A stretch of DNA of 64,000 nucleotides, from the NCBI GenBank assembly GCA_963845755.1, contig CAWJTV010000039.1:256001-320000 (forward strand). Reading direction: 5' to 3'. Numbering within the stretch: the stretch's first letter is position 1; every line of letters begins with the position of its first letter. Below, in pieces: positions 51,921 through 64,000 of the stretch. The notes below the pieces were generated by a model. That model did not search any database. It was not told the origin of the DNA and worked only from the letters and a program-made list of their open reading frames with translations. Both the position numbers and the translations under genes were made by a program. The stretch is from an uncultured Planctomycetota bacterium. GTDB taxonomy: Bacteria; Planctomycetota; Planctomycetia; Isosphaerales; Isosphaeraceae.

Positions 51921-52027
51921 AGAAGAGCTCCTTGTATCCCGAACGCAACGCACCGACGTCGTCCACCAAGACGGTCGGGTCGTCTCAGCAGGATCGTCTG
52001 CTCCAACACCCATCGACGATCGGCCGG

Positions 52028-53156
52028 TCAAAGCCGCTTCACGAATTCCTTCATCTTGCCTCGCGTATCGGGCAAGCCGAACTTGTGGAACAGGAAGGTC
52101 ACATTCCCCCAGGTCCACGCCGGGCCGCAATGGGCCAGACGTCGGAGGACGTCCTTCTGGAACTCGGTGAGCTCGCTCGCCTGGCGAGGTCCCTTCGGCT
52201 CGTCGAAGGCGAGGTAGAGGATCGCGCCCACCATCGTGATGCTGCCGCTATCGCCCCCTTGCAGCCGACCCAGGCGCATCGAGCATCCGTGGGACCGTCG
52301 TCTTGGCCGCCGAGGCGCCGAGCCGGGCCAATGCGGCGGTCACGGCCGCGACGACGCTCTCGCCGTCCGACCAGGGAATCTGAAGATACACCTCATCGAT
52401 CGGTCCCGGGTCGGCGATCGCTTCCATGAGCCGATCGACGGCCGCTTCCGGTGTGCGTTGTCCGGCGATGCGCGCCAGCGCAATCGCCGCCGCGATGCGG
52501 ACCGGACGCGCGTGGACGGGATCGAGGTAACGCTCGACCAGAGGGCCGACATCACCCCCGCCCGCGCAGGGCAAGCTCAGGAGGATGCTCGCCTTGACGC
52601 GATCGTCCGCCTCGACTTTCAGGCGTTCTTCCACGCGAGGAACGATCTCCGCGGCACGATCGCGGCCCAAAGCTAGCGTGTAGGCGGCGGAGAATCGGAT
52701 TTCCGGTCGGGGATCATCGAGCAACTTCAAGTAAACCGGAGTGCCCGCCACGACGGCCAGCCGGGCCGATTCCACCCATCCCAGCTCCTCTCGGAGTCGC
52801 TCGTCCCATTCGGATCGTTTCCTCTCGTCTTCGAAGGCCGACGCCTTTTCGAGCAAGGGTCCGTGGACATCGAGATAGGAATTTCCACAGGCGAGCGCCG
52901 CGACGTAGACCAGAAGTTCGGCCTTGTCTTGCACGGTCGCCGATTCCAGCAACTCGATCAAGAAGGGGACGGCATGAGACGTCGCCGAATAGACGGTGCC
53001 CTGATGGATGACATTGCTCCACAACGCCGAGCGCGCCTGCTCGCGAGTCCCAGCCTCGTCCGAGGCCAGGTCGCGAATCAGGTCGGGCACATCTTCCGCG
53101 GGACCATAGGCGTGCTCCAGGCTTGACCAATCGATGCGATCGAGTCCTTCCAGCAT
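52028..53156 (-). CDS. HEAT-repeat protein; frameshift near 52285
   Basis: LDRIDWSSLEHAYGPAEDVP..HQGTVYSAT..VPFLIELL; LLDDPRPEIRFSAAYTL. Confidence 0.8.
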
Positions 53157-53530
53157 GGCAGCCTCCACCAGAAAGTCGTCCGATCCGCGATCCGAAGTCG
53201 TGCCACGTCCCACCGATCATGTTAACACGTACAGGCATTCTGCCGATCATGGCGACGCTTTGCAAGGGATTGGAAACCCCGGCCACCGACCTGAGAGGGG
53301 TTTACCAGAGCCCCAGGAGTAGCGGGCCCCGGCTTCTTCCGGTGCCGGCCCGCGAAAAGCACCCGTTATGGAGAGATGGCGGACTTTTGGAGGTGGATTC
53401 AAGTCTGCCGATCGCGATGACGATATGAATTGCAGGGGCGTTTCTGCTTGGTACTTGCGAGGACTCGGCACGGACGTGAAGCGGATGATCGGCGAACGGA
53501 TGGACAGAGGGATCGCGCATGCCCCTAGCG

Positions 53531-54910
53531 ATGATCGATGGGAGTAATCGGACTCCAGATCGTCGAGGCGGGAGGGGTGGACAGAGCACGCTCATTCTCC
53601 TGATGGCGGCATGTCTCTCGTCGGGCTGTGCGAGTTTATCCCCGTTGGTCCCGGCCGCGCCGGAGGCTCCTCGGCCACTGGCGATGGGCACGCCGGAGGA
53701 GGGGCCCGACCGAAACGATCGCGCGGTCGCCGATCGGGATGGATCGGTGATCAAGGCGTCGATGAGCGAGGCGGCGGTGTCCGAGGCTGTCCAGCCTCCG
53801 TCCGAGGCGGTCGAGGAGTCGGCTGCCGCCGCGTTTCCGGATGGGATGAGCGACGACGACGGTCCGCTCTATCGCTACGACCCGATGCGTGGAGCGGCAA
53901 CCTCGCGGGAGCCGCCACCGAACCGCAACCTGACCCTCCGCGAACTGCTCGGGCTCGGCCGTTCGGACATCGCCGACAAGCCCGACATCGTCGACGTGCC
54001 CCGATACCCGCGGCTGCACGACGACCCCCTGGCCCGGTCGCCCGTACCCAGGGCGGAGCGTGACCGCCTGTTCTTTCCGCCCCTGTCGAACCTCATCTTC
54101 GAGCACAATGACGAGCTGAGCGACGAGGGCGAAGACCTCCGTCTCGAGTCCCTCCGCCGCCGGTCGAACTACGACATCACCATGCCCGGCCCCGACACCG
54201 CCAACTTCCCCAACAGCCCGTACACGCTGCCCAAGGGCCGGATCTACATCGAGAACTCGCCCGCGTCGTTCTACGGCAAGTCGCTGGTCTCGGCGGCCCA
54301 GTATAACTGGGAATTCCTGGTCCGATACGGCCTGACCGACAACCTCGAGTTCCGGCTGTTCTCCAGCGGCTATAGTGCCACCATCGGTAAACCTCCGACG
54401 GCGGGCTTCAGCCCGCTTGCCTTCGACCTGAAGTACCACTTCTGGGACGAGAATCGCGAGAAGCACATCCCTGCCGCCGGGGCCGAGATATACATCTTGA
54501 CCCCCTTCGGTTCCCCGTACTTCAATGGCGGGACCCAGCCCTCGATCTCGCTGCTGCTCGACCACTCGCTTCCCTTCGACGTGATGCTGGAACACAACTT
54601 CGGCCTGACCGGCCTCGAGGATACCTTCGGCGGCGCCGTCTATGTGTTCAGCTACCAGTGGTCGCTCCAGCGCCAGGTTTTCAAGGATTTCGCGGTATTT
54701 ACCCACGGCTTCCTGAACTCCGCCGCTCTGCCCCGGCTGCCGATCTTCCAGCGCGACATCCACACGTTCAAACCCAGCGCGGTCGTCGTCGGGGGCGGAT
54801 TCCAGTGGAACCTGTCAAGACGCCTGGCCCTCTTCGGGAGTTACAACGCCGGACTCACCGTGTTCTCCCCGTCGATCGTCGGCCTGCTCGGGTTTGCCGT
54901 TGCTCTTTGA
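53531..54910 (+). CDS. Putative outer-membrane transporter (MetA-pathway/phenol-degradation-like barrel) with a lipoprotein-like signal
   Basis: LSSG-C lipobox-like motif; PGPDTANFPNSPYTLPKGRIYIE; LVRYGLTDNLEFRL; alternating beta-strand pattern. Start position is uncertain. Confidence 0.7.
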   Translation: MIDGSNRTPDRRGGRGGQSTLILLMAACLSSGCASLSPLVPAAPEAPRPLAMGTPEEGPDRNDRAVADRDGSVIKASMSEAAVSEAVQPPSEAVEESAAAAFPDGMSDDDGPLYRYDPMRGAATSREPPPNRNLTLRELLGLGRSDIADKPDIVDVPRYPRLHDDPLARSPVPRAERDRLFFPPLSNLIFEHNDELSDEGEDLRLESLRRRSNYDITMPGPDTANFPNSPYTLPKGRIYIENSPASFYGKSLVSAAQYNWEFLVRYGLTDNLEFRLFSSGYSATIGKPPTAGFSPLAFDLKYHFWDENREKHIPAAGAEIYILTPFGSPYFNGGTQPSISLLLDHSLPFDVMLEHNFGLTGLEDTFGGAVYVFSYQWSLQRQVFKDFAVFTHGFLNSAALPRLPIFQRDIHTFKPSAVVVGGGFQWNLSRRLALFGSYNAGLTVFSPSIVGLLGFAVAL

Positions 54911-54973
54911 GCGGTCGAACGAGGTAAGATGTTTTCCGCAGACCGTGCCGTCCCCGCTCCTGGAAAGTGCTGA

Positions 54974-56233
54974 ATGTCCGCCACCAGTCACCCGCCCGAT
55001 CCGACCGACGATTCGACATCGCTGCTATCCCGCCGGCCGTATGCGCTGTTCCTGGCCGGTCGGTTCCTGGGCACACTGGCCACCGGCTCTCAGTCGGTCG
55101 TCATCGCATGGGAGGTCTACGAGCTCGCTCGAGAGACTATGTCCCTCGCGGAGGCCGCTTTCGCCGTCGGGATGATCGGCCTGGCCCAGTTCCTGCCGCT
55201 GTTCGCCCTCACGCTCGTCGCCGGTGAGACGGCCGACCGGCACGACCGCCGCCGCATCCTCACGCTCTGCTACGTGGCCCAGGTCCTGATCTCGGTGGGG
55301 CTCGCATTCCGGTCGGCACTCGGGGGCGGGCTGTGGCCGATCTTCGTCGTGGCCGCCCTGTTCGGCTGTGCGCGGTCGTTCTTCCAGCCGACGGCGAGCG
55401 CCCTGGGCCCCATGCTGGTGCCGCTCCGATTACTGCCCCGGGCGATCGCGACCAATTCGCTGGCCGCCCAACTGGCGAGCATCCTCGGCCCCGCGCTCGG
55501 CGGGCTGCTCTGCGTGGTGTCGCCGGTCCTCGGCTACGCGGTCAGCGCCGGGCTATACGCGGCGGCCGCGTCCTGCGCCCTCTTGATTCGGGCCGACACC
55601 CGGCCTCCGATCGAGGCGGCCCGGTCGCGGGTCGCCCAGATCCGGGAAGGGCTCGTGTACCTGTGGGGGAACCAGCTCGTGCTCGGGGCCATCTCGCTGG
55701 ACCTATTCGCCGTCCTGCTCGGCGGCGCGACCGGCTTGCTCCCGGTGTTCGCCCGGGACGTGCTCGCGGTCGGTCCGCAGGGGTTCGGCATCCTCCGCGC
55801 GTCACCGGCGGTCGGCGCCGTCTTGATGGCCACGTATCTGGCCCACCGGCCGATCCGCACACGCGCGGGCATGAAGATGCTCCTGGCCGTTGGCCTGTTT
55901 GGGCTGATGACTGTGGTGTTCGCCTTCTCCCGATGGCTTCCGCTGTCGGTGTTCGCCCTGGCGGTGCTCGGCGGGGCGGACATGGTGTCGGTGTTCACAC
56001 GGCAGAGCCTGGTGCAGATCGCCACTCCAGACCGGATGCGCGGTCGTGTGTCGGCGGTGGCGACGCTGTTCATCGGGGCGTCGAACGAGTTGGGGGAATT
56101 CGAGAGCGGAGTCACGGCCCGGGTCCTGGGGCCCGTCGGCGCGGTGGCGTTCGGCGGGGTCGGGGCGACGGCCGTGACGGCGGTCTGGGGCTGGCTGTTC
56201 CCCCGGCTGCGGACGGCCGATCGGCTGGTTTGA
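54974..56233 (+). CDS. MFS transporter (EntS/DUF894-like)
   Basis: About 12 TM helices; GETADRHDRR, ISLDLFAVLLGG, TPDRMRGRV, SNELGEFESG. Confidence 0.92.
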   Translation: MSATSHPPDPTDDSTSLLSRRPYALFLAGRFLGTLATGSQSVVIAWEVYELARETMSLAEAAFAVGMIGLAQFLPLFALTLVAGETADRHDRRRILTLCYVAQVLISVGLAFRSALGGGLWPIFVVAALFGCARSFFQPTASALGPMLVPLRLLPRAIATNSLAAQLASILGPALGGLLCVVSPVLGYAVSAGLYAAAASCALLIRADTRPPIEAARSRVAQIREGLVYLWGNQLVLGAISLDLFAVLLGGATGLLPVFARDVLAVGPQGFGILRASPAVGAVLMATYLAHRPIRTRAGMKMLLAVGLFGLMTVVFAFSRWLPLSVFALAVLGGADMVSVFTRQSLVQIATPDRMRGRVSAVATLFIGASNELGEFESGVTARVLGPVGAVAFGGVGATAVTAVWGWLFPRLRTADRLV

Positions 56234-56443
56234 GAACGGATTCCCACGTCCTTCTCTGCGACTAATCCTAAAAGAAATATTTATTTTAACATTTTAAAAT
56301 AATAATATATTATGTATTGGCGTTCCGAGGGGGAACCTTGGGAAAAACCGAACCAGGGAAGACACCGAAAGGCACGTCCGTTTTTCGTGCCCCTGTTCAC
56401 CTTCCCGGAGTCTCCCAACGATCGGGGTATGACCGTGCGGTGC

Positions 56444-57830
56444 TCAGCGTCGCCGCCGCGCCTGGTCGCGCAGGATGTTCTTCTGATTCTGCTTCACCAG
56501 GATCTCGAAGAGGTCGTCCCTCTCGCCGGGGCGGGTCAGGTCCTGGCCCGTCTTCACCACCCCGATGTAGGCCACGCACATCTCGTCGGTCACGTCGGGG
56601 CCATGCTTGACGAGTTGGGGCGGTCGGTGGGGGTTGGCGCGTGCGGCGAGTTGTCGTAGTGGGCCACGATCTTGACGACCGACCCCTTCGGCAGGCGGAT
56701 CGGCTGCTCGAAGGAGTAGGTGTTCTGCCAGGAGGGGTCCCAGTCGGCGATGTGGAGGAGGTCCTGGTTGCGACCGTTCGGGTACGTGACCGACATGCGG
56801 AACTCGCGCCGAGCTGGTGCATGTGAGGGGCGAGTGCGATCGCCTCGAGGTTGACGGGGACGAACCAGGTCGCGCGGACCTCGACGTTCGCGTTGCCGGG
56901 CGCGAGCTTGAAGGTGGAATTCGACACGTTCGCCCACTCGAGCATCCGCTTGACCGGCTTGCGGGCGAAGTGAAGCCCCAATCGCGTGCGGTTGACCTCG
57001 GGCTTCCCGTTGGGGTGGTAGTGGACCTGGAGGATCACGTCGGCCCGGCGGGGCAAGGAGCGGCCGATGCCGTCGGGGAGGTGCATGGCCTCGTTCCCCG
57101 CGGCCCAGCCGCCCAGGTCGCCGGCGATCTCGATGCCGGGCCCCGAGTACGAGATGTAGCCCGGCCCCGGCTCGGCCGTGTCGCGATGCCGGCCGTACGC
57201 GTGGGTGTTGACGAACGCCATCATATGGTGCACCACGCGGCGGTTCCCCGGCCGGTACTCGACCGCCGAGATCGACACGTCGCGCGGGAGGTCCGTGGGG
57301 ATCACGAAGCACCGGTAGATGTCCGGGCCCGAGGCGGGGACCCGGAAATCCTCCGCCATCTCGAGCACGAGGTCCGGCGGGCCCAGCGCCCATCCCTCGG
57401 GGAACCGGGCCGGGGCCGGCATATGCGCCGGCTCGCCCCGCGGGGCGCCCGCATCGGCCCACGCCTCGAGTACGGCGATCTCCTTCGCCGTCAACGAGCG
57501 GTCGTGCTTGAGCTTGGGCCCTACCCCGGCTGTGGGCTTCCAGGGGGGCATCGAGAGGTCTGCGGCCACCGCGGCGATGTCCGAAGCGCGCTTCCGAGCC
57601 TGCTCATATGTCTCCAACGCAAACGGCCCGATCTGGTCGCGGCGGTGACAGCCCTGGCATCTCTGCTGGAGGATCGGTGCCACGTCCTTGGTGAATGTCG
57701 GCGCCCCGACCACTCGAGTCGGTTCTTTGCCCTGACTCACGGGGGTGCCCAGCCAAAGGATCCCTGCTGCGAACCCAATACCTGCAAACCCGGTCCGTCT
57801 TACGGCCGCCCCGATGTGTCGAAACCTCAT
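56444..57830 (-). CDS. Secreted cytochrome c / copper type II ascorbate-dependent monooxygenase-like protein; frameshifts near 56805 and 56640
   Basis: CQGCH haem motif, VVHHM, APHMH, DWDPSWQ, DEMC. Confidence 0.82.
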
Positions 57831-58477
57831 TCAGATGGGCCCCCGGCAAGGTGCGGAGAAGTTGCGTCGGACGCGTAGACGACGCAGCCCCTCGGCGGCA
57901 TACCGCCCTCCAACCCCGGCTCGTCGGGTCGGAACTGGGCGCGGCGGCGCGGGCGGATCGTCTCAGCTAAGCTTCGAGTACAAGAAGAGATATCGAATCC
58001 AAATTCCGTGAGCGATCGATCCCTCGGTTCCTTCGCTCCACGCCGTCGAATTCGATAGCGGACGGGCGAACGGACACGGTGGTCAGTAGAGATTAGGTTG
58101 GGAAGGACAGGAGAAGCCCCATGCTAGCATCCCCATCCCAGAGAATCAAATGAATAATCCGTTTTTTTCGCGACCGGCCGAGCTGGCTAGAGAGTCGCCC
58201 TTGGGCGGCTCGTCCGGCCGACAGAGGAGTTCGGGAGCCAATTTTGTGCCGAGGCCATCGCCGGTACTAGCAATATGTATAATAGTATTTACAGATAAAA
58301 ATAATTATTTATGAAATTCTCCGCCTGGCAGAAATGGTTAACACTGGCCCGAGTTCGGGAGGGGATGGAGGGCGTGCTCTTGAGGGCATCTCGGCGCGTC
58401 TTTTGCATTTCCTCGCAGACGGCACGTGAGCGGGCCGATGGTTTCCAATTCGAGCAATGTTCAAGGAGATCTCGATC

Positions 58478-58702
58478 ATGTCGGACAAATCCTGGGGACT
58501 CTGCAAGGACTGCAAATGGTGGCAGATCGAGCCGGATGCCGCGGTGAATAACCTGACACTAGGACTCTGCATCGACGAAAAGCTCCAACCCTACGTCTTG
58601 CGGGTTTCGGGGATCAGCGGCTGCAATCGGTTCCAACCCGGCAAACCGGCCAGGGCCGAAGGGTCGGCGGAGGCGCCGCCGCGTGCGAAGCCGACGCGTT
58701 AG
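58478..58702 (+). CDS. Small four-cysteine protein (CxxC-x18-C-x17-C)
   Basis: AAGGAG RBS, protein-like composition, AT-rich upstream region. Confidence 0.7.
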   Translation: MSDKSWGLCKDCKWWQIEPDAAVNNLTLGLCIDEKLQPYVLRVSGISGCNRFQPGKPARAEGSAEAPPRAKPTR

Positions 58703-58759
58703 CCGCCATTTCTCACTTCGGAGACCGCGAAACCGACGGGGAAACGGATCGGACCGATT

Positions 58760-58906
58760 CACCACAGAGTCACAGAGCACACAGAGAAGGTCCAGATGCG
58801 TCGTGACGTGAGAGAACGGCCAATCGCCCGCTTCCGGCGGATCGGACCGAAACCCAGAATGATTTCTTATTTCTGTATTCTCCGTGTTCTCTGTGGCTCT
58901 GTGGTG
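58760..58906. repeat. 9-bp periodic inverted-array hairpin (CACAGAG-NN)n / (NN-CTCTGTG)n between convergent genes
   Basis: CACCACAGAGTCACAGAGCACACAGAG ... CTCCGTGTTCTCTGTGGCTCTGTGGTG. Confidence 0.8.
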
Positions 58907-60808
58907 CGAAAGCCGGGTTCGTGATTTTTTCTCCGCCAGACCTCGACGTGGCCGAATCGAGCCTCGGGCACGTAGTCGCGTCGGATGATCCCGATCACAT
59001 TTTCGAGCTTCATGGCCGGGATAACGTCGCGCTGGCGTGGTTCCCAGACCACAACCGAATCCGCGGTCGCTTCGAGCTGTCTGGCGAATTCGGGGTCGAG
59101 ATCGAGATTGACCCATTGCAACCAGCAGATCCCCGATTCGGCAAGGAAGGGGGAGAGGCGGCCTGTCGGACCATTGAGCGACTCCATCGGGTACCGGTTC
59201 AAGACGTTGGCAACGAAGGTTTCGGGTTGGGTGGAATCGCGGAGATAGCCCAACACCAGACAGTAGGTCTCCCAGGGCGAGAGAGGGTGTGATGCGCCCT
59301 GGAAAGCCTGGAAGCAGCCGGGCGGGGGGTTCGCCGGCATCTTACCGAGGACCAGGGACCGCACCGCCTGGGCGCTGCGATCCAGGTGGCACATCCACGG
59401 TCTCTGGGGCACGACCTCGTAGGCCAGCAAGGCGACGGCAACGACGTGCACCGGCCTGCGCCAACCCACGCAAGGAAATCAACAGGTAGGCGGGGAAAGC
59501 CCAGGTGATCGAGCCAACCACGAAGAGCGGGTGAATGAGATACGTGTGCGGGACCGGGTGAATCGGCCGATAGACGAGTGCCGCGACCCACGCCAACAGC
59601 CAGGTGCGCGCGGTCCCCGTCAACCGCGACGTGCGGCTCAGCGCGAAGATCAGGGTGGTGGCGAGCGGGACATCCGTTCGCCAGTCCGAGCCTTGTTCGA
59701 GGAACATCCTCATCGCACCGGCCGGCGTAACCCGGCTGTAAGGCCCGCCGTAGGCGACCACGCGTAATCCACGAATCCAATCGTCAGTGATCCCCGAGAA
59801 AATCACCGGTGTAAATGCTACCAACGAGAAGAGGCCGGCCCACCCGGCCCACTCGATGACGGTCCATGCTCTTGCCGACCGGCTCGTCCCCGGGGCCGGC
59901 CCGGGTTCGGCGATCGCCGAGGCCAGTGCGGGGAGGAACAGCACGGCATTCGGCCGGATCGCGAACGCCATCGCGGTCGTGAGGGCCGATGCCATCCGGG
60001 ACCAACGACCGGGCCAGGATTGGGACACCATCAGGCCCAGGGCCACCAGGAACGCCACGTGCCAATCGCGCTCGCCGGTGGTCTCGAACGGCTGGCTCAG
60101 GTAGAACTTCAAGAAGGCCAGATAGCCGATCAGCCCCGGCACGGCACCGTCGAGCCTCCGACGGCTCCAGCAGACCAGCACGATCCCCAGGAGCACGACG
60201 CAGCCCGCGTCGAACGCATAGAAGGGTGTGGTCCGACCCCAGCCGAAGATCTTGCCCAGCATCCAGAAGATGTAAGTCTCGCCCGGGAAGTTGTAGGCCC
60301 TGATGTCGCGGTAGGGGAGAATCCCCCGATCCCACGACATGGCGAGCACGGCGAAGGTGTCCTCGTCGCGGCTCCAGGGCCAGGTCAGGTAGTGGGGAAC
60401 CCAGGCCGCCAGGAAGACGCCGCACGTGACCCCCAAGGCCATCGACAACCCTCGGTCCCAGGCGAATTCGGCGAGCGCGTTCATCCCTGTCAGGCCCCGC
60501 CCGGCGCGTCTCCGAAGGTCCCAGGGTCCGATGTTCGATGTGGCGAGTTGCCTGGTGAGGAAGTAGGCCGCGACGAGGGCCGATGCCATGGCTTCGACCC
60601 AACACGCGCGGAGGGGAGCGGGCGTCAACCTCCAGAGCAACCTCGACAGATCCGGGAGGATTAGCAGGACGAAGAGAGCGGCCGTACCCAGGAAGGCGAC
60701 CGGGAGGACCCTTCTCAATCGCGGTCCGGACGTGAGCGGCATGAGCGGCCACCGATGACTTGTCGATCCGACGGCCTCGTGCACCGGGACGCATCCCGCG
60801 AGGGCCAT
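58867..60808 (-). CDS. Polytopic membrane protein, GT-C (ArnT/PMT-like) glycosyltransferase-like; frameshift near 59460
   Basis: SRDEDTF..GILPYRD..NFPG luminal loop, many TM helices, GERDW, IRP. The start may be 60742. Confidence 0.65.
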
Positions 60809-60975
60809 GAACGCGAGCCGTCAACCCTTTCAGCCGATCCGAAGACAAGCGTTTCGACGCGTCTCGTCCCTCGATTCTTTCACGGGGCCTCCGGGTGTGT
60901 CAACCGGAGCGAGATCCACGACGTTCGGCCATTTCGACCCACCCGACAACAGGCCTCTCGTAGACCCCCTGAGCC

Positions 60976-61683
60976 TCATTGGAGACGGGCCGTTTCGGGG
61001 GCATTGGCGAGCCAGTGCGACATCAGCATCACGAGGTGGGTGCCGCACGCGAGAATCTCGCCCGGTTCGGGGTTATCCGGAGAGGGTCCGTCGTACCTCG
61101 GAATGTGGATGAAACCGCGACAGGCCACGCGGTCGCCGAGCTCGTGCATGGCGCGGTAGAAGACGTAGTTGCAGACGTACACGCCCGCGTCGCGCCAGGC
61201 CATGACGTCCGTGACCCGCCCTTGGCCGCGAGCGGACAAATACTCGCGGCGACTCTTCAACCCTTCGTAGAACCAGGGCAGGGGGAGGGTCGTCTCATGG
61301 ATTCCGGGTCCTCCCTCGACGACCTGCTGCGCCGGCAGCGGCGGGGGTAGCTCGCCGATCGCGTCGGGAGAGGGCACGGCCAGGTTCCGCGCGACCAGCT
61401 CGAGGCGGACGAACGGATGGGGGGCCGCGCCGAGCATGAGGAGGGCGTCGGGCGCCCGCTCTTCCACGGCGTCGCGGATCGAGGGCCAGGCGTACCGCCA
61501 GGTCGTATCGAGCCGAAGGCCGACGACCCGGACCCCGGCGATCTCCTTCCCGTGGACGAGGTTCGCCACGTCGTCCGTGGGATTGTTGAAGCAGTCCTCG
61601 AACGGCCCGAACCCGGTCACGAGCAGGGTCTGCAGACGCCCCGCCCGCCCAGGACCGTCGGACGATGTCACCTCGTCATCCAT
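60976..61683 (-). CDS. Pyroglutamyl-peptidase I (C15) family cysteine peptidase
   Basis: LLVTGFGPF..NP, LELVARN (Glu), DAGVYVCN (Cys), GFIHIP (His); the ATG overlaps the upstream gene's last codons. Confidence 0.88.
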   Translation of the reverse strand: MDDEVTSSDGPGRAGRLQTLLVTGFGPFEDCFNNPTDDVANLVHGKEIAGVRVVGLRLDTTWRYAWPSIRDAVEERAPDALLMLGAAPHPFVRLELVARNLAVPSPDAIGELPPPLPAQQVVEGGPGIHETTLPLPWFYEGLKSRREYLSARGQGRVTDVMAWRDAGVYVCNYVFYRAMHELGDRVACRGFIHIPRYDGPSPDNPEPGEILACGTHLVMLMSHWLANAPETARLQ

Positions 61684-63969
61684 GGTTCGGTGTCCCCTCA
61701 CGCTTCGGCTGGCTGTAGACGGAGGTAAAATAGTGCCGCTTCCGAGCCTGGATCTGACGCTCGAACCAGGCCGTCATCGCGGCCTCGCTCGCCACGTCCT
61801 CCGGTTTGTAGATCGCCAGGATGGTCCCCTTGATATCCGCGGCGACCTTCTCGGAGGTGGCGAGGTCGCACAGGATCAGTGTCCCCTGGGGGTCCTTCGC
61901 GATCATCAGGCCGAGCTCGATCATGACATTGGGGTTGTAGCCCGAAACGTCGGCGATGAACCGGCGGCTGGTGGTGACGTGGTCGCGGACGTTCTTGAAC
62001 AGGTTCTCGTCGAGGATGTTCTCGTCGGCCCGGACCACCTCCCAGGAGTACGGATCCCGGCCAAGGATCGACTCGATCGCCTTGTAGACGGTGTCGAACG
62101 GCGCACGAAACGGGAGTGCAACAAAGCACTTGGCACGGCCTCTGGTCGATGGGGGCGGTGCCGACTTCGGCCTACGTTCGATCCCTTCGTAGAGGAAATC
62201 GATCAGGTTCCCGATCAGAGGCTCGGCGATTTTCGTGACGGCCCGGGGGAACGGCGACCCGATGATCGCGATGTGCAAGAGCGTCTCGGCTGCCGTGGTC
62301 AAGGTATCGTTCGTGAGATCGTCGGCCCGGGCGGCGAGATGCTCGATCACGGGATGGGCGATGTTGATCAGGAGAGCGTCGGCACTGATGCTGGGCTCGT
62401 TGTTCTCGTCGTCGTCCCGCCCGTCCAGCCCGAGAGCCGGCGCCGACTCCTTGATCAACAGTGCCGCCGGAGGGCCCTCGACGCCCAGCGTGGTCGACGG
62501 GAGAATGCGGAGGTTGCTCTGACTCTTGAGCGCCCGGCCGAGTCGGTTGATGAGCCGGCGGAATGGGTCTGGGATTGGGGGGACGGGCAGCGGATTCTGG
62601 GATTCGTCCTCGGTGACCGGGTTGATGATCGTGACTTGGTCGTCGGCTGCCAACTGCTCGAGCAGGGCCTTCTCCTCGACCCCCTCGCCGACCACGATCA
62701 GCTTATCGAGTCCGCTGGTCTGGCCCATCTGGTACTGACGGGACGACGTAGATGACCCGTTTCCCCGCCGGGTCGTCGCTGGAGTCCGCAAGCCGGATGA
62801 TGTCCGGCCAGGCGTGCTGGCCCGCGGTGGTCTCGAAGCGGTAGTGATCGCGAAAGAGCTGGCGGAGTCGTGGAGAATACTTGGCGTGGACGAGCAGGAG
62901 CGTACGGTGGGTCCGCAAGATCTCCTCCATCAGCCTCGGCTTCTCGCGGCCGACTGTCTCGAGGAAGTCGACGACGTGCCCCTCGGCTTGCTTGCGGATC
63001 TCTTGATAGGCCGCGTCGCGCCGAACCGCTCGCGGTTGATCTGGAGGAGGAAGTGGGGGCTGTCGACCAGGGAGACGATCAAGGACAGGTTCTCGGGAAG
63101 GAAGTCCGGGCGCTGGCAGTCGAGGAAGACTCCCTTGGAGAAGAACGCGATCTTCTGGTTGTAGACATCCTTCAGCTCCTGCCGGGGGATTCCGAGGATC
63201 AGCCGCGTCCGCTTCTCGTCGGGGCCGTCCTTGGGGGCGTCGTCGAGAAGGACGGTGTAGGCCGCGAGTGTGTCCTGGGACTGTGAATTTCTTGAGGAGC
63301 TCCCGCGCCGTCGGGTCGAAGAGCAGCCGCCCTTCTCCCTCCGATTGGGATAGGGCGGCGAGCCAGCGGTGGTGGACATTGACCGCCGGGGCATTGACGC
63401 CGACCGAGATGGGCACCGACAGGAGGGCGAAGTTCTTGCTAATGTATTCGCGGAGCACGGCGTTCTGCGCCGAGGGTCATCGCGGCGTCATCGTCCGGGT
63501 CGAGGTGGAGGACGGCGAGCGTGCCGACCTCGGTGCGGGGGCACCTCGAGAGGTGGTAGGTCGTCGCGTCGCGGTGCCACACGATCCTCCAGCCTTGCTC
63601 ATCCGATGCGGAACGAGTCTCGACGATGATCTTCTTGGCGATCATGAAGGCGCTGAGGACACCGACCCCGAACTGGCCGATGGTCTCCGCTTCTGCGGCG
63701 GGGTTGGGGACGTGGCCGCCGATCTGGGTGAATCCGTTGACGATCACCGATTCGTCCATTCCGCAGCCGTTATCGAGGAAACTGATGGTCTGGCCGTCGG
63801 ACCAGACCGAGATCCGCGGCTCGGTCACGCCCCGGGTGGCGTCGCGCGCGTTGGATACGAACTCGCGGATCGGCGTCTCGGGATCGTCGCTGACGTGCCT
63901 GCGGAAGAGGTAGAGGATCTGCTCGACGTTCGGGATGACTTCCCTCACAGAGGTCCCTGGTTCACCCAA
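61676..63969 (-). CDS. Divergent Hsp90/HtpG-like GHKL ATPase fused to a C-terminal nucleoside deoxyribosyltransferase/TIR-like domain; about 4 frameshifts (near 63460, 63280, 63022, 62742)
   Basis: AAGGAGG RBS plus TTG; IREFVSNARDA, DNGCGM, GQFGVG, LPENL..VDSP..INRE, LLINIAHPVI; then CFVALPF..VRADE..IADVSGYNPNVMIELG. Confidence 0.8.
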
Positions 63970-64000
63970 TCCTCACCTCCTTCGTTATGGGGGCTTCGTC

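Follow-up and report, generated by a model that had tools for sequence, protein, structure and literature searches.

What would an Hsp90-like ATPase do when it is fused to a nucleotide-cleaving type of enzyme domain and followed by a peptidase gene? The question is raised by one end of a 64,000-nucleotide stretch from an uncultured Planctomycetota bacterium (the window; G000:C39:256001–320000, in an assembly of 14.3 Mb and 49 contigs), where a minus-strand gene encodes the N-terminal, middle and C-terminal domains of Hsp90 and then a domain of NDT/DNPH1/TIR fold (the tail), and is followed by the gene of a C15 pyroglutamyl peptidase. Uninterrupted relatives have the same architecture with conserved catalytic-type residues in both parts, the fusion occupies the same place in a recurring gene order, and in one genome the C15 gene is exchanged for a caspase and a SLOG-like gene. 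Tentatively, and with somewhat less than even confidence, we read the locus as an Hsp90-gated glycohydrolase of nicotinamide adenine dinucleotide (NAD+) or a ribonucleotide that passes its signal to an exchangeable peptidase as part of a conflict, probably anti-phage, response. In bacteria, Hsp90 is familiar as a general chaperone; in this gene a complete Hsp90 is joined to a TIR/NDT-superfamily enzyme and, in one genome, stands at the TIR's position of TIR–caspase operons. The intact relatives make it testable whether the Hsp90 ATP cycle gates second-messenger synthesis, whether NDT/DrHyd domains are signal makers for proteases and whether immunity can involve a pyroglutamyl peptidase.

The fusion gene runs from 63969 to 61676 on the minus strand. 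Three-frame translation and a profile scan resolve it into five frame pieces, which between them cover positions 7 to 731 of a 745-position profile built from intact relatives, the frame changing four times and no large stretch being missing. The pieces, domains and downstream gene are as follows.

63948–63490, minus strand: fusion piece 1, profile positions 7–159
63470–63282, minus strand: fusion piece 2, profile positions 163–224
63226–63011, minus strand: fusion piece 3, profile positions 234–305
63026–62733, minus strand: fusion piece 4, profile positions 301–400
62692–61736, minus strand: fusion piece 5, profile positions 418–731
63970–64000, minus strand: ribosome site AAGGAGGTG at 63982–63974, with spacer
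63471–63969, minus strand: GHKL ATPase N-domain with REFVSNARD, DNGCGM and GQFGVG; start codon TTG at 63969
62733–63470, minus strand: Hsp90 middle domain in three frame-shifted pieces; conserved Arg in LQINRE
62141–62737, minus strand: end of the Hsp90 middle domain and C-terminal (dimerisation-type) domain with LLINIAHPVI, in the frame of the glycohydrolase domain
61676–62140, minus strand: C-terminal NDT/DNPH1/TIR-fold (DrHyd-type) glycohydrolase domain, predicted from N-P-N-V-M-I-E-L-G with its invariant Glu
60976–61683, minus strand: pyroglutamyl peptidase I (C15) of ~235 aa; ATG at 61683 (GTG at 61701 is the start given by the open reading frame [ORF] finder)

A preliminary description of this DNA had stitched an Hsp90-like ATPase with a C-terminal domain from these fragments, and the tiling together with the same architecture in 24 relatives bears it out; the motifs CFVALPF, RADE and ADVSGYNPNVMIELG that it reported are present in the three-frame translation. 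Taken singly the pieces match families weakly: Pfam returns HATPase_c_3 (6e-11), HSP90 (0.003) and, below the cut-off, CAP12-PCTIR_TIR (0.003). The top NCBIfam matches of the N-terminal piece are HtpG and 'HSP90 family protein', far under their whole-protein cut-offs, and the last piece has a weak match to the CAP12/Pycsar TIR.

The family was collected with a profile search of 1.84 billion representatives, of which the best 150 matches were taken; 24 full-length or near-full-length close relatives were aligned, with fragments and three shorter proteins excluded. All 24 are uninterrupted, are 28–48% identical to the first and contain Hsp90 followed by the same C-terminal domain. The ATPase residues E35, N39, D42, D65, G67 and G69 and the middle-domain Arg R298 are each kept in at least 90% of them. 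A six-sequence profile matches E. coli-type HtpG (2iop, residues 11–582) over positions 12–536 at 7e-42, covering the N, M and C domains, and an AlphaFold2 model of relative P0001 (predicted local distance difference test score, pLDDT, 83.3) is matched by Foldseek to Hsp90 and TRAP1 structures. Judged by its GHKL Glu, Asn, Asp and glycine motifs, its middle and C-terminal domains and the Arg, the fusion is a member of the Hsp90 superfamily.

It is a divergent one. The family shares with HtpG, Hsp90 and TRAP1 the N-M-C domains, the catalytic Glu, Asn and Asp, the middle-domain Arg and the overall fold, but differs in its ~20% identity to them in structural alignments, its long branch, the fused C-terminal enzyme and a dedicated operon. 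In a midpoint-rooted FastTree phylogeny of 134 Hsp90 parts, with clade labels set beforehand by score, the 27 close sequences group together on a long branch (one clade, support 1.0), separate from the host genome's own HtpG-like gene, which is intact on contig C17. Housekeeping HtpG (NF003555) was rejected as an identity on account of this separate clade, the extra enzyme domain and the HtpG on C17. The same tail is present on 90 of 92 stored proteins of at least 700 aa, a count that is biased because the query contained the tail and because four of the rows belong to one cluster. Wider Hsp90–tail fusions are spread over several clades and interspersed with tail-less proteins, which suggests repeated recruitment or repeated loss. 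One Hsp90 fusion (P0042) bears EAD1.

What kind of enzyme is the tail? An AlphaFold2 model of the window's own copy (pLDDT 86.6) has a five-strand flavodoxin-like fold, and Foldseek ranks TIR-STING, TIR-APAZ, DNPH1 and NDT first among its matches (E about 1e-4). A 19-sequence tail profile matches NDT (2a0k; 1e-5) and Rcl/DNPH1 (3e-5) and, more weakly, Cap12, PycTIR and a CMP N-glycosidase; an 8-sequence tail profile matched no meaningful solved structure. The NDT/TIR-like fold put forward in the preliminary description is confirmed by the model and the larger profile, and the identity is narrowed: the domain is closer to glycohydrolases of the NDT, DNPH1 and BcTpr type than to a Thoeris TIR. 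A plain Thoeris TIR was rejected, with no ThsB match in the window pieces and a tail profile that misses plasmid TIRs (scores of 1.4 and 0.4 bits).

The tail has the fold and nucleophile Glu of NDT, DNPH1/Rcl and MilB (DrHyd superfamily, PF05014). The Glu is invariant in the 24 relatives and in a larger set (45/45) and aligns with the nucleophile of the Rcl and NDT ELG/EVG motif. In the window it lies in NPNVMIE, an instance of N-P-N-x-x-x-E, and an Asn four residues before it is kept in 21 of the 24. In deoxy-specific NDT/DNPH1 enzymes an Asp of helix 2 (DNPH1 D80) is catalytic, and deoxy-specific NDTs have a Tyr in the first strand; unlike these, the tail has a hydrophobic residue at the Asp position and a Phe in its first strand, the latter fitting a ribosyl substrate.

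The closest tested enzyme that we found, going by its motif, is BcTpr of the Bacillus cereus BcTir/Tpr system, whose MilB-like glycosidase cleaves NAD+, yields an isomer of cyclic ADP-ribose (cADPR) and is anti-phage according to the passages available of that report (10.1101/2023.05.26.542521). The MilB-like domain has N80-P81-N82 and E86, and with the substitution N82A or E86A, NAD+ depletion and formation of the cADPR isomer are impaired and phage defence is lost (same passages). The likeness is a comparison of motifs with the text of that report and not an alignment to the BcTpr sequence; on this motif the tail is probably an active N-glycohydrolase. Related domains occur in 13 host-phylum loci (13 of the 14 foreign loci L003–L016), all matching PF05014, mostly below its cut-off; their partners are Ser/Thr kinases in five, Hsp70 in one (L007) and a receiver domain in one (L013), the rest being unannotated. 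We count these fusions, and the EAD1-bearing Hsp90 fusion P0042, in favour of the signalling reading.

Is the peptidase part of the system? The gene matches Peptidase_C15 above the Pfam cut-off (60976–61701; 6e-18, 66 bits against 22.7), scores below the NCBIfam equivalog cut-offs and is the only match in the genome to a three-sequence C15 profile. Its Glu (RLE), Cys (YVCN) and His (FIHIP) are present and kept in all three aligned C15 proteins, so the intact triad that had been reported stands, as does the overlap of the fusion's stop codon (61678–61676) with the likely peptidase start (ATG at 61683). Beyond the window, the close family was followed in four more loci: L017/L018, two contigs of one Deltaproteobacteria metagenome-assembled genome (MAG; 2 of 35 stretches), and L019, L020 and L021, three of the 80 loci kept from a metagenome scan, with 65 further confirmed stretches beyond those. 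The downstream gene can be read in four loci: it encodes a C15 peptidase in three (the window, L019 and L021), its start being no more than 16 bases away from the fusion stop in each, and a caspase in L018. The C15 linkage thus recurs elsewhere, in L019 and L021.

In L018 the fusion is followed by the caspase gene and then by a 162-aa gene that is SLOG-like by eye (family searches gave no match). At E ≤ 1e-20, a plasmid search gave 50 matches to the caspase, which is 41–47% identical to the 12 best; the top two (47% and 46% identical) are both encoded after a TIR gene. The SLOG-like gene is 41% identical to the third gene (162 aa) of the TIR–caspase operon of B. subtilis plasmid pBS72. The ~70 bases between the fusion stop and the caspase start are too few to hold a TIR gene. 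Because the plasmid homologues of the caspase and SLOG-like genes come after a TIR gene, the fusion in L018 occupies the TIR's place in TIR–caspase operons.

Two observations on these genes stand apart. The pBS72 operon (L135:1585–3439) contains TIR and caspase genes and the SLOG-like 162-aa gene in third place, a gene of which the passages available of the type IV Thoeris preprint make no mention (10.1101/2024.10.24.620036). Past the caspase and SLOG-like genes, L018:2276–6828 encodes a 3D/PG-binding/NlpC-P60 cell-wall hydrolase and a winged-helix AAA ATPase.

The preliminary description allowed for more genes ahead of the fusion past 64000 and proposed a two-gene system. Five further genes are indeed found there on the strand of the fusion, and although the linkage of Hsp90 fusion and C15 peptidase stands, the two-gene composition does not: the cassette has seven genes, including a TPR gene and four for predicted exported proteins, and its peptidase slot is interchangeable. 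The order is R, A, B, C, TPR, Hsp90 fusion and peptidase, and the five genes lie as follows.

L001 7223–6024, strand of the fusion, beyond 64000: TPR-like gene
L001 7680–7297, strand of the fusion: small predicted exported gene C
L001 8147–7680, strand of the fusion: small predicted exported gene B
L001 10054–8144, strand of the fusion: large predicted exported gene A
L001 10858–10298, strand of the fusion: repeat gene R

The TPR gene lies ~55 bases ahead of the fusion in the window genome and directly upstream in five of five loci, all of which also have C and B ahead of the fusion. Gene A is present in the four loci with enough DNA (4/4) and R in two of two. Gene C has an in-frame stop in L017, and B is fused to A in L020; the profile of protein B held one out-of-frame L017 row, and B of L017 rests on BLASTP and an in-frame match. 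The signal-peptide-like N-termini of A, B and C were judged by eye. R, also predicted to be exported, consists of x-x-A-G-Q-V hexapeptide repeats, ~16 copies in the window genome (L001:10298–10858) and 7–8 in L020 (1096–1488), and its Pfam collagen match is probably compositional. The tails of the two R copies past the repeats have no apparent conservation. The alignment of protein A found no homologue at E ≤ 0.001 in a word-based, and so weak, search, and the protein had no usable match in the ESM Atlas, where its model was of low confidence; a plasmid search gave no match to protein A or the TPR protein. Protein C has Atlas matches of 0.84–0.85, a lead only, the nearest named cluster having DUF5818 on 21% of its members.

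Are the frame changes of the window copy real? Homologue searches found intact relatives of 680–789 aa, and in the same assembly rpoB is in two pieces (one frame change) and rpoC has two frame changes, the two genes spanning ~8 kb; frame slips also affect the upstream TPR gene and R. A short-read contig matches 62739–62878 and continues into an 11-letter loose end equal to 62727–62737, hence base 62738 is missing from it, a difference of the size of the fourth frame change; this contig has a depth of 3.7 and differs close to its end, and its run is possibly, not certainly, of the source sample. Another short-read contig spans the junction of fusion and C15 gene (61632–62061) without a gap, and independent contigs bridge none of the other three breaks. 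Because rpoB and rpoC are frameshifted too, sequencing errors are the most likely cause of the breaks. The opposing explanation, a decaying pseudogene with the C15 gene attached only loosely, draws on the three unbridged breaks and on a density of four frame changes in 2.3 kb, against one in rpoB and two in rpoC over ~8 kb. It has to reckon with frameshifted essential genes, aligned pieces that have no in-frame stop and retain the catalytic motifs, the short-read contig that lacks the extra base, and C15 genes after the fusion in two other loci; even if true it would leave the intact relatives untouched. The intact relatives, the rpo genes and the short-read contig thus speak against the frameshifts as a mark of a pseudogene, which the preliminary description had named as grounds for refutation, and decay of the window copy is very improbable, a small share being kept for it because the break density exceeds that of the rpo genes. 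In the neighbouring genes, 58867–60808 (a multi-pass membrane protein) and 56397–57830 (a predicted exported enzyme) also look frame-split, as would be expected if indel errors run through the whole assembly.

Among 401 host-phylum genomes the close family turned up in one, the centre genome itself, and likewise, among the matches listed, in one of 401 genomes of the MAG's phylum, again the centre genome, with 33 weaker matches beyond those listed. Its spread is patchy, which we count for a conflict role. The remaining 77 of the 80 loci kept from the metagenome scan encode GHKL proteins of other kinds, and neither a cassette gene nor the tail was matched in them. No plasmid record covered 80% of a close relative, and viral contigs yielded 14 loci with ATPase-only matches, the tail being in none. 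Evidence for enrichment in defence islands is mixed. L021 has a TIR-WD40 gene and a serine recombinase gene on its flanks, and plasmid ABRG53a of Pseudanabaena sp. ABRG5-3 (NZ_AP017561.1) encodes an 877-aa Hsp90 fusion of the wider family (WP_126390531.1; L134 18854–21487) next to a pair of ThsB-type TIR and PDC-M50 genes, an SNF2-type helicase gene and a TPR gene; the window and L019 are considered below. The plasmid locus also contains a 232-aa unknown gene and a vWA and AAA pair, and its host, a cultured cyanobacterium, is an accessible test case.

How does the cassette compare with described systems? Like BcTir/Tpr, in the passages available, it combines a glycosidase-type domain bearing N-P-N-x-x-x-E with a tie to TPR; but in BcTir/Tpr one protein unites the TPR with the glycosidase and a TIR protein is the partner, whereas the cassette has the domain fused to a full Hsp90, encodes its TPR protein separately and includes in addition a peptidase and four predicted exported proteins (10.1101/2023.05.26.542521). 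No TIR gene was seen in the cassette in the loci scanned. In type IV Thoeris, as far as the accessible passages go, a molecule made by a TIR activates a caspase, and the layout is alike in that a gene of Rossmannoid NAD+-cleaving type lies immediately ahead of a cysteine protease gene; it differs in that the enzyme here is NDT/DrHyd-like and fused to Hsp90 instead of a ThsB-type TIR, and that the window peptidase is a C15, the caspase of that layout occurring only in L018 (10.1101/2024.10.24.620036). Tiamat (DUF3684 with a PD-(D/E)xK nuclease) and other Hsp90-like defence proteins, which carry an HD or calcineurin effector at the N-terminus, are similar in that gating of the fused effector is proposed for their GHKL/Hsp90-like ATPase, and in the parts of the source available they have no described NDT/TIR tail, exported partners or C15 peptidase (10.64898/2026.09.30.754977). 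Tiamat itself was rejected as an identity: TmtA matches were weak and at the ATPase level, and Pfam found neither DUF3684 nor PD-(D/E)xK. Hsp90-like NTPases can stand in for STAND domains as conflict-system switches, according to passages of 10.64898/2026.10.19.760177, and DrHyd is named as a conflict effector in PMC8195603, the available text of which does not contain HSP90. The principle of NTPase-gated nucleotide-signalling conflict systems is thus anticipated in the literature; in full-text literature searches and the passages available (PMC7159879 included) no description of an Hsp90-NDT/TIR fusion with C15 or of the cassette, and so not this composition, was found, and subscription papers or supplements may list the fusion.

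Hsp90 proteins dimerise through their C-domain, and NDT and TIR enzymes need to oligomerise, which makes gating of the tail by the clamp cycle conceivable: two tail domains would be positioned, and their activity controlled, through dimerisation and the ATP cycle. The predicted substrate of the tail is NAD+ or a related ribonucleotide, the TPR protein is a putative dedicated adaptor or sensor for the fusion, and the exported R, A, B and C would supply an envelope-side input, which their predicted export suggests. The nucleotide product would then signal to the peptidase encoded by the adjacent gene. The parts of this scheme differ in strength. A role of the cassette in conflict or immunity is somewhat better than an even prospect; activation of the downstream peptidase by the tail's product is plausible for the caspase version and doubtful for the C15 version, the weakest part. 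Sensing of foreign proteins by the chaperone part, as put forward in the preliminary description, is conjectural. Several observations weigh against the scheme as a whole. Pyroglutamyl peptidases are narrow omega-peptidases, and we know of none that acts as a killer; the three C15 proteins are only 26–32% identical to each other and may be separate recruitments, and only four loci reveal the downstream gene. The caspase-linked fusion of L018 has Ser at the equivalent of BcTpr N82, and the L017/L018 locus is split over two contigs with frame errors, so that the caspase pair may have been inserted independently. To these are added the tail's hydrophobic residue at the catalytic Asp position of Rcl/DNPH1 and the four predicted exported proteins, unusual for a cytoplasmic abortive-infection system. 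By ORF inspection the surroundings in window positions 52000–64000, in the 14 kb upstream and in L019 are transport and metabolic genes; no defence island is evident in the parts of the window read or in L019, and PADLOC returned weak domain-level matches.

Some of the same observations would suit an envelope or peptide-processing module, in which the exported proteins are the output, Hsp90 and TPR are dedicated to folding or quality control, the tail binds nucleotides in a regulatory capacity and the C15 peptidase trims pyroglutamate from R-derived peptides. A, B, C and TPR are kept in every locus of sufficient length, and no defence island is evident in the window or L019. Gln is the source of pyroglutamate, and both R copies have Gln directly after an A-x-A-type site, with which R is predicted to start, and in each repeat, where it comes after small residues; yet by a crude rule 43 of 215 ORFs in the host genome have Gln behind the predicted signal site, which makes two of two for R weak, and the C15 peptidase has no signal peptide. 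Such a module would also leave the TIR-type caspase and SLOG-like pair in the same slot, and the patchy distribution, unexplained, and we consider it fairly unlikely. A toxin–antitoxin logic, in which the tail kills by NAD+ depletion, TPR restrains it and the peptidase regulates by trimming or removing a component, is unlikely as well, and a little more so. The tail family behaves like a mobile effector fused to many switches, the annotated genes adjacent to the distant plasmid fusion include no cysteine peptidase, and the similar domain of BcTpr depletes NAD+ directly (10.1101/2023.05.26.542521, passages available). What this logic does not accommodate is the L018 caspase, which is of the TIR-following kind, the layout of type IV Thoeris being one of signal-activated proteolysis in the passages available (10.1101/2024.10.24.620036).

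The signalling reading that we prefer can be extended to a trans-envelope pathway, in which the exported proteins, including the Gln-repeat precursor, would report surface damage through TPR to the Hsp90 clamp, the clamp would turn on the fused NDT-type enzyme, and the new NAD+-derived messenger made by that enzyme would license the C15 peptidase or caspase. This extension is distinctly improbable; if true, the locus would hold a C15 peptidase activated by a signal and a second-messenger synthase gated by Hsp90, each to our knowledge the first of its kind.

Apart from the close family, ten Hsp90 open frames were found in relatives of G401, the tail domain being in none of them. Two divergent tail-less Hsp90-like frames from relatives of G401 (L110:2456–5068 and L114:7380–9149) outscore ordinary HtpG on the family profile.

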